This document shows, piece after piece, positions 54,101-59,042 of a stretch of DNA of 64,000 bases (position 1 is its first letter; every line of letters begins with the position of its first letter). A program made the translations under genes and the position numbers. The notes under the pieces are model-generated. The model searched no databases, was not told the DNA's origin, and was given only the letters and a program-made list of their open reading frames with translations. The stretch is from contig CAWBYY010000011.1 in the NCBI GenBank assembly GCA_963793095.1, forward strand, positions 277,034 through 341,033, read 5' to 3'. The DNA comes from an uncultured Chloroflexia bacterium. GTDB taxonomy: Bacteria > Chloroflexota > Anaerolineae > Anaerolineales > UBA4823.

Positions 54101-55255
54101 CTAATAAATTGGAAGGGAGGGGTCGATTTCCTGCGCCCAGGCGTTGATGCCGCCTTTGAGGTTCTTCACCTTGCGAAAACCGGCGCTCACCATCAACTCG
54201 AGAGCTCTGGCGGAGCGTGTACCCGATTTACAGAACACCACCATTTCATCGGCGCTGTCCAGTTCAGAGAGGCGGGCGGCTAACTGTCCGAGCGGGATCA
54301 GGGTCGCCCCTTCCAGACTGGATATTTCCAGCTCGTGCGGTTCGCGCACATCAAGCAAGGTCAGGTGGTTTCCACCCTGCATGCTGTCGGAAAGCTGCCT
54401 GGCGCTGATATCCCAGCCCTCTCCGGCGGAACCCGTTTCGTGGTCGTGGGCCGGGACACCGCAGAATTCCTCGTAGTCTATCAATTGCGTGATTTCCGGT
54501 TCAGGACTGCAAACCTTACAGTTCGGGTTTTTTCGCAGGTTAACAAAATCGAAGGACATATCCAGGGCGTTAAAAACCAGCAGCCGGCCAATCATTGGCG
54601 TACCAATCCCCAGTATTATCTTCAGGGCTTCTGCCGCCTGCAGCGAGCCGATTATTCCGGGCAGAACCCCCAGGACGCCGCCCTCCGCGCACGAAGGGAC
54701 CAGCCCGGGCGGGGGCGGTTCGGGGAAAAGGCAGCGGTAACACGGACCTGAGCGGGCGTCGAATACGCTTAACTGCCCGTCGAACCGGAAAATCGAGCCG
54801 TAAACGTTCGGTTTGCCCAGTAGCACACACAGGTCATTGGTCAGGTAGCGGGTTGGGAAGTTGTCGGTCCCGTCAATGACCAGGTCATAATCCGATGCGA
54901 TCTCAAACGCGTTTTCGGAAGTGAAAGGCTGGTTGTAAATATCGGCCTGGATTTCCGGGTTGATGTCGAGCATTCTGTCACGGGCGGATTCGACCTTTTT
55001 TACTCCCAGCGAAGATGTCCCGTGGATCACCTGGCGCTGCAAATTGGAAAAATCGACCACATCGTAATCCACTATACCGATCCGGCCGACGCCTGCCGCG
55101 GCCAGGTACATCAAAACAGGCGATCCCAGCCCGCCGGAGCCGATAACCAGGACTGAGGCGGTTTTCAATTTGCGCTGCCCTTCAAGGCCTACCTCCGGGA
55201 TCAGCAGATGGCGGGAATAGCGCAGTATTTCGGAATGAGATAAATCCGGGGACAT
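54101..55255 (-). CDS. moeZ: MoeB/ThiF-type adenylyltransferase fused to a rhodanese domain (MoeZ-like sulfur-carrier activating enzyme)
   Basis: GSGGLGSP nucleotide loop, CYRC/CKVC zinc motifs, C-terminal rhodanese with CKSGTRS. Confidence 0.85.
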   Translation of the reverse strand: MSPDLSHSEILRYSRHLLIPEVGLEGQRKLKTASVLVIGSGGLGSPVLMYLAAAGVGRIGIVDYDVVDFSNLQRQVIHGTSSLGVKKVESARDRMLDINPEIQADIYNQPFTSENAFEIASDYDLVIDGTDNFPTRYLTNDLCVLLGKPNVYGSIFRFDGQLSVFDARSGPCYRCLFPEPPPPGLVPSCAEGGVLGVLPGIIGSLQAAEALKIILGIGTPMIGRLLVFNALDMSFDFVNLRKNPNCKVCSPEPEITQLIDYEEFCGVPAHDHETGSAGEGWDISARQLSDSMQGGNHLTLLDVREPHELEISSLEGATLIPLGQLAARLSELDSADEMVVFCKSGTRSARALELMVSAGFRKVKNLKGGINAWAQEIDPSLPIY

Positions 55256-55552
55256 TTAAGGATCCATATGGATGGGCCTTGATCCGCCGGCGATACTTGG
55301 AAGAATCATCAGGCGGTCGTTTTCGCCCAGCCGCGTTTCAAGCCCCTCCAGGTCATTGATATTATCTTCATTCAGGAACAGGTTAATGAAAGGGCGCAGG
55401 GCTCCTTCATCATTAAAAATGTGTTGTTTCATTTCCGGGTACTGCTCCACCAGGTCGTCCATTGCTTCGGATACGGTTGACCCGCAGAGTGTGATTTCAC
55501 TCTGCCCGGCGGTGTAGTTCCTCAATGGTGTGGGTATTCGTAAATTTGGCAT
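55256..55552 (-). CDS. cysO: MoaD/ThiS-family sulfur carrier (CysO-like) with an 8-residue extension after the Gly-Gly
   Basis: MPNLRIPTPLRNYT...LPSIAGG-SRPIHMDP, 98 aa. The internal ATG of track ORF 55256..55729 was chosen by family length. The stop abuts the moeZ start. Confidence 0.75.
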   Translation of the reverse strand: MPNLRIPTPLRNYTAGQSEITLCGSTVSEAMDDLVEQYPEMKQHIFNDEGALRPFINLFLNEDNINDLEGLETRLGENDRLMILPSIAGGSRPIHMDP

Positions 55553-55613
55553 TGATTTACTCGAAATTGAACAGGATACAGGTTTTATTTTGGTATATAA
55601 ATATACTCCATTT

Positions 55614-55904
55614 TCAGCAGCCTGCTCGCTTGACGACAGATTCACAGGAGGAAGCAGGCCATATTTCGATCCTGCCAGCCTGTTTAAAAGGCTGCATAAA
55701 ACCTTCAATTTGGGCGGGGTTATCAGCATCCATAATCAGCACAAAGGTGTGTCTGTCATCCAGGACCGCCTCGCTGAGTATCTGCAGGCCGAATTTTTCA
55801 GCGTTTGCTCTATCGATGTGCTTCATAAGCATTTCCCCCTGCTGGGGGTCTTTTGCCGGACATGCCTCCGGATTGTGCTGGTGCTGTACAAAATAAAGCG
55901 ACAT
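55614..55904 (-). CDS. Small conserved-looking hypothetical protein (96 aa) inside the cysteine operon
   Basis: Intact GC-rich ORF between mec and cysO. Cys at ..PEACPAKDP.. and ..SSCESVVKRAGC-stop. Confidence 0.5.
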   Translation of the reverse strand: MSLYFVQHQHNPEACPAKDPQQGEMLMKHIDRANAEKFGLQILSEAVLDDRHTFVLIMDADNPAQIEGFMQPFKQAGRIEIWPASSCESVVKRAGC

Positions 55905-55931
55905 AGTAAAACTCCTCTGGCGGGGATGAGA

Positions 55932-56375
55932 TCAAGTCCCGGACACGATTTCCGAAATATGGATTGGCTCTTCATTGAAGTGCTGGCGGTCCTCTGAAAG
56001 GCGCCACGACCGGCTGCCAGCCGCTTTTCCACCATTAACGCTGGTAATCATGTAAGAAAACCAGGGCAGCGCCCACTGGCGGTCGAATTCTGAAGGCTGG
56101 TCCGGGTGATCGGGATGGGAGTGAAAAACTCCAAAAACATCCATGCTGCGGGCTGCAGCCTCCTTTTCGCCTCGCAGCAGATCCTGGGGGGAAATCAGAT
56201 AACGGTTTCGCCTGGTTTCCACCCGGCTGGTATTGGTCAATTCAAGCACAGCCTGTACCTGGCGTGTCTCTCCGTTAACCTGTCCAATCAACAGGCCGGC
56301 GCCTTCTTCTGGGTAAGTATTCTCGGCGTGTTTTTCTATCCTAGTAAGGATGTCTCTGGTCAGTATTATTGTCAT
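55932..56375 (-). CDS. mec: JAMM/MPN+ metalloprotease (Mec-like)
   Basis: JAMM motif HSHPDHPDQPSEFD plus an upstream EEGAG glutamate. Confidence 0.85.
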   Translation of the reverse strand: MTIILTRDILTRIEKHAENTYPEEGAGLLIGQVNGETRQVQAVLELTNTSRVETRRNRYLISPQDLLRGEKEAAARSMDVFGVFHSHPDHPDQPSEFDRQWALPWFSYMITSVNGGKAAGSRSWRLSEDRQHFNEEPIHISEIVSGT

Positions 56376-56402: not shown

Positions 56403-57359
56403 TTATAGCTGCTGGTCCTTCCAGATGTTTTTATCGCTGAGGTATTTATAACCTGCGTCTGGAAAAACCGTGACTATCAGGCCTTGCTCCAGTTCCCGGG
56501 CGACTTGAAAGGCAGCCGCCGCGGCCGCCCCGGAGGATACACCGACGAATAAACCTTCCTCGCGTGCCAGCCGGCGCACCATATTGTGAGCCTGCTCGGT
56601 TGAAACGGTTTTAATCCTGTCGGGCAGATCCGGGTCGTAGATTTCTGGCAGGATGGTTGACCCCAGGTGCTTTAATCCTTCCAGGCCATGCAGGGCGTTA
56701 TCCGGTTGCAAAGCGATCACACGTACCTCGGGTTTGTACTGGCGCAGGAAGCGAGTCACACCGGTTATCGTCCCGGTTGTGCCCATCCCAGCGATGAAGT
56801 GGGTGATTTCCCCACCGGTCGCCTGGTAAATCTCGGGTCCGGTTGTATTAAAATGGGCCAGCCAGTTGGCTGGATTATCGTACTGGTTTGCGTAGAAATA
56901 GAGATCCGGGTGTTCTTCGAAAAGCTGGCGGGCTGTCCGGATTGCCCCGTCGGAACCTTCCAGGGGGTCGCTCAGAATCAGCTCAGCGCCCAGGGCGCGC
57001 ATAATGGTCACTCTTTCGGGGCTGGCGTTAGCCGGCATTACAAGGGTGGCGGGAATCCCCAGGGAAGCGCAGAAGGTGGAATAAGAGATGCCCATGTTCC
57101 CTGAGGTAGAATCAAGCAGTCGTTTTCCCGTGACCAGAGAACCGTCGGCGAGAGCTGTGCGGATGATATTCAGAGCGGGGCGGTCCTTTACCGAGCCAGC
57201 CGGGTTAAACCACTCCGCCTTTGCATATACTCTGACACGCGGCGAGAGCTGGCGGGTGAGGTTGTTCAGGGGCAGCAGGGGGGTATCCCCGACGTTGGTT
57301 TCGAGCCCGTCGAGCGGGCGGATCGCTATATCCAGATTTTGAATTGCACTTATTTCCAT
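56403..57359 (-). CDS. cysM: Cysteine synthase B-type (CysM, thiocarboxylate-dependent)
   Basis: PLP lysine motif NPAGSVKDRPA and GTTGT loop. Its context with cysO/mec/moeZ matches the CysO-dependent pathway. Confidence 0.85.
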   Translation of the reverse strand: MEISAIQNLDIAIRPLDGLETNVGDTPLLPLNNLTRQLSPRVRVYAKAEWFNPAGSVKDRPALNIIRTALADGSLVTGKRLLDSTSGNMGISYSTFCASLGIPATLVMPANASPERVTIMRALGAELILSDPLEGSDGAIRTARQLFEEHPDLYFYANQYDNPANWLAHFNTTGPEIYQATGGEITHFIAGMGTTGTITGVTRFLRQYKPEVRVIALQPDNALHGLEGLKHLGSTILPEIYDPDLPDRIKTVSTEQAHNMVRRLAREEGLFVGVSSGAAAAAAFQVARELEQGLIVTVFPDAGYKYLSDKNIWKDQQL

Positions 57360-57401
57360 CTAAATACTCCAGAAAGTTAATTAAAACGACCAGCAGGTAA
57401 C

Positions 57402-57640
57402 AAAAAAGGGTGGTTTCCGGCGCATTCTGTCCTGGTGCACAGACAGTCACTGCGCTCCACTTCCGCATGAGGGAGCGGGGAAGCGACCACCCTTCATCAA
57501 CTTGCTGGTCAGATCAGATAAACTTTTTCCCTGTTTATCTTAACGTGGCGAGAGGGTGATCAGAATCCCCGCTTCAAACACGTACAATTTTTCATAAAAA
57601 ATTTTCTCCGGTTTTTACCAATAATTATGATAAAGTAGAT
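57402..57640 (-). promoter_or_regulatory. Structured 5' leader of the cysM operon with alternative helices and an intrinsic terminator (unclassified riboswitch or attenuator candidate)
   Basis: Minus strand: segment B AAGGGUGGUC (57485-57494) can pair with A GAUCACCCU (57553-57561) or with C ACCACCCUU (57406-57414). C is followed by a U6 run. An extra helix joins AGCGGGGA (57566-57573) and UCCCCGCU (57474-57481). Confidence 0.5.
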
Positions 57641-57644
57641 ATAT

Positions 57645-57672
57645 ATTATATATAAAGTCGGGTATTTGTCAA
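57645..57672 (-). promoter_or_regulatory. Near-consensus sigma70-type promoter for the cysM operon
   Basis: TTGACA (57667-57672, overlapping the kamA-like stop codon), a 16-nt spacer, then TATAAT (57645-57650). Confidence 0.6.
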
Positions 57673-59042
57673 GCGTTATCAGAGGCGGAGGCGCTTTGGT
57701 CCTCCACCTGAGGGCTCTCTTCCTCTCCCGGGCCGATGCCGAGCGGCTGCCATTTTTTTTCGTCCCTTAAACGGTGCTGGATGCCGCCGCGCTCGTGGAC
57801 AACATCAAATCCCTCCGGCTTAATAAATAACTGGTCCCCTTCCAGCAGGGCGGTGATGCCCTGCTGGCCCGGCTCGGGCCTCTGTTGTCCCCGGAATCTG
57901 GCTTTGAGGGCGGGCGTATAATCGACCGGCTCCTCATAAGTAGTGATAAATCCCTCGAAATTACGCAGGATAATCTTGTGGTCCGACATGCTCAGCATAT
58001 AGTTGGGCGAGACCGGGATTTTGCCGCCCCCTCCCGGTGCATCGATAATATACTGGTGGACCGCAAAGCCGGAAGTGTGGCCGCGCAGCCCCTCCATTAT
58101 TTCGATTCCCTTCGCGACCGCGGTCCGGAAATGGCCTGCTCCTTCCACCAGGTCGCACTGGTAAAGGTAATAGGGCCTCACCCGGATTCTGACTAATTTC
58201 TGGACGAGTTCGCGCTGGATATGGACATCATCATTTACACCAGCCATGAGGACTGCCTGGTTTCCAAGCGGTATCCCAGCCCTGGTCAGGCGGTCGCAGG
58301 CTGCTTCCAGTTCTGCGGAGATCTCATTTGGGGAGTTGACATGGATATTCAGCCAGAATGGATGGTATTTCTGGAGCATATCCGTAAGTTCGTCTGTGAC
58401 GCGCATAGGAAGGAATACCGGCACCCGTGAACCTATCCTCAGGATTTCGATATGAGGGATCTCTCGCAGGCGGCTGAGGATCTCCTCCAGAATACGCGGC
58501 GCCAGGACGAGCGGATCTCCTCCGGATAACAGCACATCCCTGATCTGGGGAGTGGCGCGGATATATTCAAGCTGCATTTCAAATTCTTCACGCGAGAAGG
58601 TCGCCGAAGGATCGCCCACGATTCGAGAGCGGGTGCAGTACCGGCAGTACGAGGCGCACTGGGTAGTTACGAGCATCAAAACCCGGTCAGGGTAGCGGTG
58701 CACCAGACCCGGCACCGGCGAATGCCGGTCTTCCGCCAGCGAGTCCTCCATCATGGATGTGAAAGGGACCATCTCGGCCGCGGTTGGGACAACCTGCTTG
58801 CGGATCGGGTCATCCGGGTCTTCCGGATCGATGAGGGAGATAAAATAGGGTGTGATATCGACCCGAAATAAATGGGCAGCCGAAAGAGCCTTGCGTTCAC
58901 TTTCGGTGAGAGGCAGTACTTTTTCAAATTCCTCGACGGTGTTTATGCGGTTGCTAAGCTGCCAGCGCCAGTTGTTCCACTTTTCATCGGGAACATCTGC
59001 AAAATAAGGTGCCCTCCTGGAAGGAAATTTTGAATTATTCAT
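57669..59042 (-). CDS. KamA-family radical-SAM aminomutase (lysine 2,3-aminomutase-like)
   Basis: 457 aa: CASYCRYCTRSR radical-SAM cluster motif, PLP-binding region and an acidic C-terminal tail. Confidence 0.85.
   Translation of the reverse strand: MNNSKFPSRRAPYFADVPDEKWNNWRWQLSNRINTVEEFEKVLPLTESERKALSAAHLFRVDITPYFISLIDPEDPDDPIRKQVVPTAAEMVPFTSMMEDSLAEDRHSPVPGLVHRYPDRVLMLVTTQCASYCRYCTRSRIVGDPSATFSREEFEMQLEYIRATPQIRDVLLSGGDPLVLAPRILEEILSRLREIPHIEILRIGSRVPVFLPMRVTDELTDMLQKYHPFWLNIHVNSPNEISAELEAACDRLTRAGIPLGNQAVLMAGVNDDVHIQRELVQKLVRIRVRPYYLYQCDLVEGAGHFRTAVAKGIEIMEGLRGHTSGFAVHQYIIDAPGGGGKIPVSPNYMLSMSDHKIILRNFEGFITTYEEPVDYTPALKARFRGQQRPEPGQQGITALLEGDQLFIKPEGFDVVHERGGIQHRLRDEKKWQPLGIGPGEEESPQVEDQSASASDNA

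Follow-up and report, generated by a model that had tools for sequence, protein, structure and literature searches.

Organization of the cysM leader region

The subject of this study is an RNA leader in front of the cysM operon on the minus strand of a 64,000-nt stretch of DNA from an uncultured Chloroflexia bacterium (the whole stretch is called the window here), together with a short open reading frame (ORF) containing two Cys codons within this leader. Upstream of the leader lies a kamA-like radical S-adenosylmethionine (SAM) gene (57669 to 59042, minus strand), whose product has LAM_C and Radical_SAM domains and falls under TIGR03820, lysine 2,3-aminomutase. The kamA-like ORF ends at 57669, with its TGA codon (57671 to 57669) inside the -35 hexamer of a sigma-70-type promoter that has the full consensus score (Table 1). 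Four promoter-like sites occur in the region versus 1.2 expected. The arrangement TTGACA-N17-TAtAAT is kept in relatives with a variable spacer sequence. Transcription is predicted to start near 57638, about 7 nt past the -10 hexamer, which would yield a leader of about 279 nt up to the cysM ATG (57359). The minimum-energy fold of the whole leader is -90.6 kcal/mol (z = -4.2), and none of 200 shuffled sequences folded as well.

Within this leader, one segment can pair in two ways. In the full-length minimum-energy fold, segment B (57495 to 57485) pairs with segment C (57414 to 57405, with a run of six U residues at 57407 to 57402), forming between the leader ORF and cysM an intrinsic terminator composed of GAAGGGUGGU/ACCACCCUUU and the U6 run. 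When the RNA is cut before C, segment B instead pairs with segment A (57561 to 57553), and this helix is extended by AGCGGGGA/UCCCCGCU. The duplex energies in the window are -31.5 kcal/mol for A:B and -16.4 kcal/mol for B:C. The terminator hairpin and U tract lie about 45 nt upstream of the cysM ATG, and the cysM Shine-Dalgarno (SD) sequence (57370 to 57367) is outside the switching helices. Separately, the full-length minimum-energy fold pairs the SD region of the leader ORF (CCGGAGA, 57605 to 57611) with UUUCUGG (57369 to 57375) beside the cysM SD sequence.

An initial annotation of this DNA had proposed the promoter overlapping the kamA-like stop codon, a structured leader of about 280 nt, the alternative pairing of A, B, and C with U6 after C, and two further hairpins between B and C, all of which are borne out by the promoter score and the folds. 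Its reading of this arrangement as a choice between terminator and antiterminator also holds beyond the window, since the A/B/C complementarity is kept with compensatory changes in 97 orthologous leaders. Below, A is termed segment 2, B is segment 3a, and C belongs to segment 4, with segment 1 (AGCGGGGA) and segment 3b (UCCCCGCU) forming the extension of A:B.

Table 1. Features of the cysM leader and operon in the window, in order of transcription
Feature	Positions	Strand	Description
Sigma-70-type promoter	57645-57672	-	TTGACA 57672-57667, 16 nt, TATAAT 57650-57645; consensus score 12/12
AT-rich box	57618-57641	-	ATCTACTTTATCATAATTATTGG; subfamily consensus TATCAAnTTTnTCATAAATATT; directly after the -10 hexamer, about +1 to +22 of the transcript
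SD sequence of leader ORF	57606-57609	-	GGAG, 10 nt ahead of the ATG
Leader ORF (cysL-like)	57560-57595	-	11 codons, ATG AAA AAT TGT ACG TGT TTG AAG CGG GGA TTC TGA, MKNCTCLKRGF*
Local 1:2 hairpin	57543-57583	-	ACGUG..GGGGAU / AUC.CCC..CACGU; stop codon near the tip; candidate pause or anti-antiterminator hairpin
Segment 1	57566-57573	-	AGCGGGGA; inside the ORF, codons K-R-G; pairs with segment 2 locally or with 3b (UCCCCGCU)
Segment 2 (A)	57553-57561	-	GAUCACCCU; begins in the stop codon; pairs with 3a (antiterminator) or segment 1
Variable hairpin	57516-57540	-	AGAUAAAC/GUUUAUCU; between segment 2 and D; outside the core; missing from compact leaders
D	57500-57510	-	GACCAGCAAGU; 5' strand of the outer clamp helix
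Segment 3	57474-57495	-	3a GAAGGGUGGU(C) 57495-57485 (B) and 3b UCCCCGCU 57481-57474; common to antiterminator and terminator
Inner hairpins (two) of branched terminator	57420-57478	-	CCGCU/AGUGG; GCGCA..CUGUCU/GGACAG..UGCGC
Segment 4 (C)	57402-57418	-	GGAAACCACCCUU; 3' strand of the intrinsic terminator, running into U6 (57407-57402)
D'	57388-57398	-	AC.UGCUGGUC; 3' strand of the outer clamp helix, downstream of the U tract
cysM	56403-57370 (including SD)	-	First gene after the leader; SD GGAG 57370-57367, ATG 57359; PLP (pyridoxal phosphate)-dependent cysteine synthase family
Remaining operon	54101-56375	-	JAMM/Mec-like protease 56375-55932; ThiS/CysO-like carrier; MoeZ-like ThiF + rhodanese adenylyltransferase 55255-54101

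A conserved leader ORF with two Cys codons forms one arm of the antiterminator

The leader ORF of the window is preceded by an SD sequence in a 5' untranslated region of about 43 nt, and its Cys codons are at 57586 to 57584 (Cys1) and 57580 to 57578 (Cys2). Its last four codons and stop codon constitute the 5' arm of the antiterminator, with AGCGGGGA spanning the K-R-G codons and segment A starting within the UGA. The same 11-codon ORF is present in five relatives that share the kamA-leader-cysM order, with the peptides MTNCTCLKRGS, M(M)NCICLKRGT, MNICTCMKRGL, MLSCMCLRRGL, and MRKCMCLGRGL. Most leaders of this long-form subfamily have GGAG 6 to 10 nt before the ATG.

To follow the ORF over larger distances, we anchored the comparison on protein and collected the 80 closest CysM loci in species-representative genomes of the Chloroflexota order Anaerolineales. 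In 79 of these 80 loci, an ORF ending in C-x-C-[LMI]-x-R-G-[SL]-stop was found upstream of cysM on the same strand, about 150 to 390 nt away, and the sole exception was a locus interrupted by a contig end. An in-frame ATG without an intervening stop codon precedes Cys1 in 93 of 96 distinct leaders, versus 2 and 5 of 96 for the other two frames. The N-terminal parts of the peptides differ in sequence and in length (10 to 20 residues), the stop codon alternates (TAG in 47, TAA in 46, and TGA in 2), and the spacing from Cys2 to the stop codon is constant at six codons. Rather than junction or loop nucleotides, it is the switching strands, the stop codon, and both Cys codons that stay invariant across the family, and neither of the alternative structures pairs the Cys codons.

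Codon choice in these leaders is also constrained. Cys1 is encoded by TGC in 91 leaders and by TGT in 5, Cys2 is TGT in all 96, and nine different codons occur between them. In the window genome, TGT is used less often than TGC for Cys (35 versus 117 in 36 long ORFs), and its presence at Cys2 may reflect selection for reading by wobble at the decisive position. In 83 of 93 leaders, C follows the stop codon (UAGC in 43 and UAAC in 39), with the window having UGAU (57559 to 57562). This context could mark a slow-release stop codon that holds the ribosome on segment 2, or it could merely reflect the pairing of segment 2.

Both alternative structures covary across the leader family

Leader sequence diverges quickly, and a DNA similarity search in 40 relatives returned only 5 orthologous leaders. 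We therefore built a covariance model from 57 compact leaders, which recovered 97 leaders at E < 1e-6, including that of the window (31 bits). The alignment produced by this model leans toward the terminator state. In an even phylum sample of 150 genomes, the model matched only genomes of the window's own order, apart from one marginal hit (G155, E = 9e-4). An exact 18-base pattern from the end of the ORF occurs at no fewer than 120 places in 185,579 species genomes, and all 80 listed matches are Chloroflexota or Anaerolineae records. In the window genome, the covariance model and the exact pattern each found only the cysM copy of the leader, and a divergent second copy could have escaped, as the model gives this long-form leader just 31 bits.

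On the terminator side, a hairpin followed by a U run is present in 82 of 85 leaders. The terminator-state structure has 83.8% of alignment cells paired and compensatory changes in 45 of 52 pairs, which none of 500 shuffles equaled, and its base stem, 3:4, is 88% paired with compensatory changes at 7 of 7 pairs. On the antiterminator side, RNAalifold unaided selected helix 1:3b (GCGGGGnUCGU with ACGAnCCCCGC) on a MAFFT alignment. This helix pairs in 87 to 92% of cells with GC-to-AU switches (87 to 100% for its GCGGGG:CCCCGC part and 92% for UCGU:ACGA). Helix 2:3a has compensatory changes in 8 of 10 pairs, for example CCACCG/CGGUUGG, CUACCC/GGGUAG, and UCACCC/GGGUGG, and its median duplex energy is -13.7 kcal/mol for cognate strands, -10.9 kcal/mol for noncognate strands, and -8.2 kcal/mol for shuffled partners. 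Both full structures outdid column shuffles and register-slid controls, and the plain MAFFT alignment agreed with the covariance-model alignment.

Two further helices accompany this switch. The local 1:2 hairpin (GGCGGGG/CCACCGCC in the family), with the stop codon at its tip, is paired in 89 to 96% of cells. The D:D' helix is the best supported of all, with compensatory changes in 12 of 12 pairs, 92% pairing, and tolerance of G-U pairs (alignment columns 118 to 129 with 369 to 380). With D immediately 5' of 3a and D' immediately 3' of the U tract, it encloses the terminator, and this position of D' restricts the helix to read-through RNA. The regions between helices vary in length and sequence across leaders.

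Modeled ribosome positions place the Cys codons at the edge of the antiterminator

We folded 92 leaders to the end of 3b with a modeled ribosome footprint whose edge lay 12 nt downstream of the codon in the aminoacyl (A) site, an analysis that is thermodynamic only. With Cys1 in the A site, 2:3a retained 10.2 bp and 1:3b retained 11.0 bp on average in the model. With Cys2 in the A site, 2:3a was unchanged at 10.2 bp and 1:3b fell to 5.1 bp. At both positions, 90 of 92 leaders kept at least 5 bp on 3a, versus 5 of 92 with the A site on the stop codon, where 2:3a and 1:3b were reduced to 0.5 and 0.2 bp. If the edge was set at 8 nt, 1:3b still had 9.7 bp at Cys2. Past Cys2, the modeled antiterminator was lost codon by codon, and the Cys codons are therefore the last stall positions predicted to leave the whole antiterminator arm free.

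For the window leader, A:B is the minimum-energy fold without a ribosome or with a ribosome on Cys1 or Cys2, and it is gone with a ribosome on the stop codon. When the U tract was included in the folded RNA, a stall at Cys1 retained the antiterminator (-63.4 kcal/mol), and the terminator won without a ribosome, with a ribosome on the stop codon, and marginally with a ribosome on Cys2.

The leader as a putative trp-type attenuator sensing cysteine

Taken together, the comparative and folding analyses make it highly probable that transcription through the leader is attenuated in a ribosome-mediated (trp-type) manner in response to charged tRNA-Cys. We assign it to the known class of ribosome-mediated leader-peptide attenuators because of the short two-Cys-codon ORF, which provides segment A through its 3' end and stop codon. 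The initial annotation, which had described the leader as being of unknown class and possibly an unclassified riboswitch, overlooked this ORF, the most conserved feature of the family, and that description is not supported. Its suggestion that the leader responds to cysteine supply was probably right.

From the parts observed here, with their conservation, covariation, and geometry, we infer translation of the ORF, stalling, timing, and the direction of regulation as follows. After transcription begins at the predicted start about 7 nt past the -10 hexamer, a ribosome would translate MKNCTCLKRGF. When cysteine is plentiful, the ribosome would reach the UGA and cover segment 1 (AGCGGGGA) and segment 2 (GAUCACCCU), and after its release, these two segments would close into the local 1:2 hairpin. 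Either way, segment 3 (GAAGGGUGGUC...UCCCCGCU) would be left free to pair with segment 4 (ACCACCCUU and U6) to form the branched intrinsic terminator, and most transcripts would end near 57402. When Cys-tRNA is scarce, the ribosome would stall with Cys1 or Cys2 in the A site, 8 to 14 nt upstream of segment 1. Segments 1 and 2 would then pair with 3b and 3a, respectively, as a two-part antiterminator, and polymerase would read into cysM-mec-cysO-moeZ.

Several points weigh against this interpretation. An SD-like motif precedes the leader ORF in only 33 of 93 leaders, and initiation in the compact subfamily would have to be near-leaderless or independent of an SD sequence. The conserved K/G-R-G-S tail of the peptide is inseparable from the constraints of RNA pairing, as is the C after the stop codon in 83 of the 93 leaders. 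With a ribosome on Cys2 and the edge at +12, the terminator of the window is slightly favored at equilibrium (-57.1 versus -54.4 kcal/mol). Even without a ribosome, RNA that ends before segment 4 has the antiterminator as its minimum-energy fold, and the default state is therefore uncertain. Moreover, the stop codon lies 79 to 161 nt before the U tract (158 nt in the window), so termination would need a lingering ribosome or a persistent 1:2 hairpin, and in the window genome this hairpin is weak (-8.7 kcal/mol).

Regarding initiation, the two compact leaders whose upstream sequence was inspected (L099, 2225 to 2270, and L112, 1452 to 1495) have an ATG only about 7 to 16 nt past the start site predicted from TTGACA-N17-TAAAAT and have no SD sequence, which suggests near-leaderless initiation in these two leaders.

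Alternative explanations

The strongest of the alternatives that we considered keeps the same parts but inverts or mixes their logic. In one version, the default state would be ON, and termination would require a ribosome parked at a weak stop codon. In another, control would be mainly posttranscriptional, through RNA processing or stability mediated by D:D', with the terminator as a secondary element. That the antiterminator is the preferred fold before segment 4 exists, that C so often follows the stop codon, and that the best-supported helix of the family can form only in read-through RNA are all consistent with this alternative. However, we identified no nuclease site or second regulatory target, and such a scheme would be a refinement of the attenuator rather than a different device, leaving the direction of regulation (more operon mRNA at low Cys-tRNA) unchanged. 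We regard it as highly improbable.

Still less probable is a metabolite-binding riboswitch of an undescribed class, in which cysteine, O-phosphoserine, sulfide, or a similar ligand would stabilize A:B or B:C and the ORF would be incidental. The length and strong structure of the leader, its mutually exclusive covarying helices, and the lack of an obvious SD sequence before the ORF in most leaders would fit such an element. So would the Rfam results, as no family reached the gathering score anywhere in the window, and the leader searched at E values up to 10 and a compact orthologue returned only noise from small nucleolar RNA and microRNA models. Against this explanation, the invariant positions are the Cys codons, stop codon, and switching strands, the variable regions between helices leave no conserved binding pocket, and the frame from ATG to stop codon is kept with N-terminal peptides that are free to vary and with TAG and TAA alternating.

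The same Rfam searches rejected the T-box, SAM-I, and every other curated Rfam family, in agreement with the initial annotation, which had considered the leader to be neither T-box nor SAM-I. That annotation had also noted a T-box-like GGGUGGU core and a GAA-UGC-G element, and both strings are indeed present in the window but are coincidences of one genome. The T-box sequence AGGGUGGNACCGCG is not conserved, as segment 3a varies among orthologues (GACGGUUGG, GGGUAGG, or GGACGGUG) and always matches its own segment 2. The GAA-UGC-G string was rejected as a specifier-like element, since it lies inside the terminator (57427 to 57421) and recurs only in the closest relative among the leaders inspected. 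A T-box-like or other antiterminator in which uncharged tRNA-Cys or an RNA-binding protein stabilizes A:B without translation of the ORF is thus the least probable of the explanations, despite these two strings and the control of cysteine genes by T-boxes in Firmicutes, given that the T-box model (RF00230) had no match even at E values up to 10, that nothing like T-box Stem I appeared in the Rfam scan or the predicted folds, and that the leader ORF has the coding features described above.

Genes and additional elements associated with the leader

The cysM product of the window matches Pfam PALP (3.4e-71) and the NCBIfam cysM/cysKM models at 333 to 334 bits, slightly below their cutoffs. The cysM-mec-cysO-moeZ set behind the leader corresponds to that of Mycobacterium tuberculosis, in which these genes serve cysteine synthesis through a thiocarboxylate. 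The ThiS/CysO-like ORF (55256 to 55729) has 157 codons as listed, with the ThiS domain spanning residues 64 to 149 only. Its true start is probably further downstream, or else the carrier has an unusual N-terminal extension.

Directly after the -10 hexamer, the AT-rich box is kept across several genera of the SD-bearing subfamily, with the spacer between the -35 and -10 hexamers free to vary. It was seen upstream of the leader ORF in L002, L003, L005, L006, L021, L034, L038, L041, L075, and L076. The box may serve as the operator of an additional, protein-based layer of control, or it may act in the RNA as a 5'-terminal element, for example a translation enhancer.

The leader is also found in front of other sulfur genes in other Anaerolineales, which is in keeping with a cysteine-sensing attenuator. 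Among the 80 pattern matches listed, the first downstream gene encodes CysM in 50, a rhodanese in 9, CysK in 6, and a DUF4395 protein in 5. In three loci (L030, L033, and L040), a leader precedes cysK-cysE, which is directly upstream of the cysM leader. A second Cys leader in one genome (G082) precedes genes for a tandem-rhodanese sulfurtransferase and a SufE-like protein (L112, 1493 to 1664 and 1667 to 3021). DUF4395 membrane proteins of about 160 to 190 residues with a CxxC motif are encoded first behind the Cys leader in L119 (4844 to 5359), L138 (4362 to 4940), L179 (reverse strand), and L133 (3053 to 3553), and the DUF4395 gene is followed either by genes for a 139-residue protein, CysK, and CysE or by a gene resembling moeZ. 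This gene order predicts a role for DUF4395 proteins in cysteine or sulfur supply. The DUF4395 membrane proteins and the tandem rhodanese-SufE pair are thus functional leads tied to cysteine and sulfur supply.

A broader model would combine these associations into an order-wide Cys ribulon, with separate sensors on the cysM-mec-cysO-moeZ, cysK-cysE, rhodanese-sufE, and DUF4395 operons. Each sensor would be ON by default and terminate only with a ribosome parked on a weak UAG-C or UAA-C stop codon, and the D:D' clamp would add a posttranscriptional step through refolding, processing, or stabilization. We consider this combined model speculative and rather unlikely. We know of no posttranscriptional clamp step described for classical attenuators.

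Comparison with known regulatory systems

The classical leader-peptide attenuators are trpL, hisL, pheL, leuL, thrL, and ilvL of Escherichia coli and Salmonella. Like these systems, the leader described here combines a short ORF containing codons for the end product, a 1:2 hairpin, a 2:3 antiterminator, and a 3:4 terminator with a U tract, with ribosome position proposed to select the fold, and like trpL, it has two regulatory codons. Unlike in classical attenuators, the amino acid is cysteine, and one codon separates the two Cys codons (C-x-C), both of which precede segment 1, so that the leading edge of the ribosome would do the masking. The antiterminator has two parts (1:3b and 2:3a), the terminator is branched in the window genome, an additional D:D' helix is present, and the host phylum is Chloroflexota.

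To our knowledge, cysteine is absent from the textbook list of amino acids under leader-peptide transcription attenuation, and the only characterized Cys-codon sensor ORFs, those of mycobacteria, act on translation. A full-text literature search returned no cysteine leader-peptide attenuator for Chloroflexi or Anaerolinea, nor a terminator-based one. If our interpretation is right, a trp-type device has been recruited for cysteine in a phylum whose gene regulation is almost unstudied, and sequence alone is enough to outline the small regulon that it controls. With about 100 sequences, strong covariation, and four alternative helices, this compact family is well suited for studying how the position of a ribosome is turned into a choice of RNA fold.

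Cysteine T-boxes of Firmicutes (RF00230) resemble the proposed attenuator in reading tRNA-Cys charging and in choosing between a terminator and an antiterminator before cysteine genes. T-boxes contain no ORF and use Stem I and the T-box bulge for direct binding of uncharged tRNA. The leader described here has an ORF, does not match the T-box model, and has a T-box-like core that varies among orthologues.

For Actinobacteria, comparative genomics predicted that cys operons are preceded by short ORFs in which Cys codons lie close to the stop codon (Seliverstov et al. 2005, PMC1262725). The authors of that study found neither terminators nor conserved hairpins and suggested Rho-dependent control. 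In contrast, a terminator, an antiterminator, and a 1:2 hairpin are all present and covary in the leaders analyzed here.

A parallel in logic is the mycobacterial Cys ribulon, in which leaderless polycysteine short ORFs are reported to control translation by unmasking a downstream ribosome-binding site (Canestrari et al. 2020, doi 10.1101/834739; Mol Microbiol 114:93; for leaderless polycysteine ORFs acting on translation, see also PMC13236596). The mycobacterial ORFs are leaderless with runs of Cys codons, whereas the window ORF is led by an SD sequence and has two Cys codons one codon apart, and the mycobacterial target is a ribosome-binding site that becomes unmasked, whereas the target here would be a hairpin and U-tract terminator. 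In both cases, stalling at Cys codons in an upstream ORF switches on cysteine operons, as reported for mycobacteria and as proposed here for Anaerolineales. Also as in the mycobacterial system, several operons each have their own sensor ORF, which in the present family would be those of cysM, cysK-cysE, and rhodanese-sufE.

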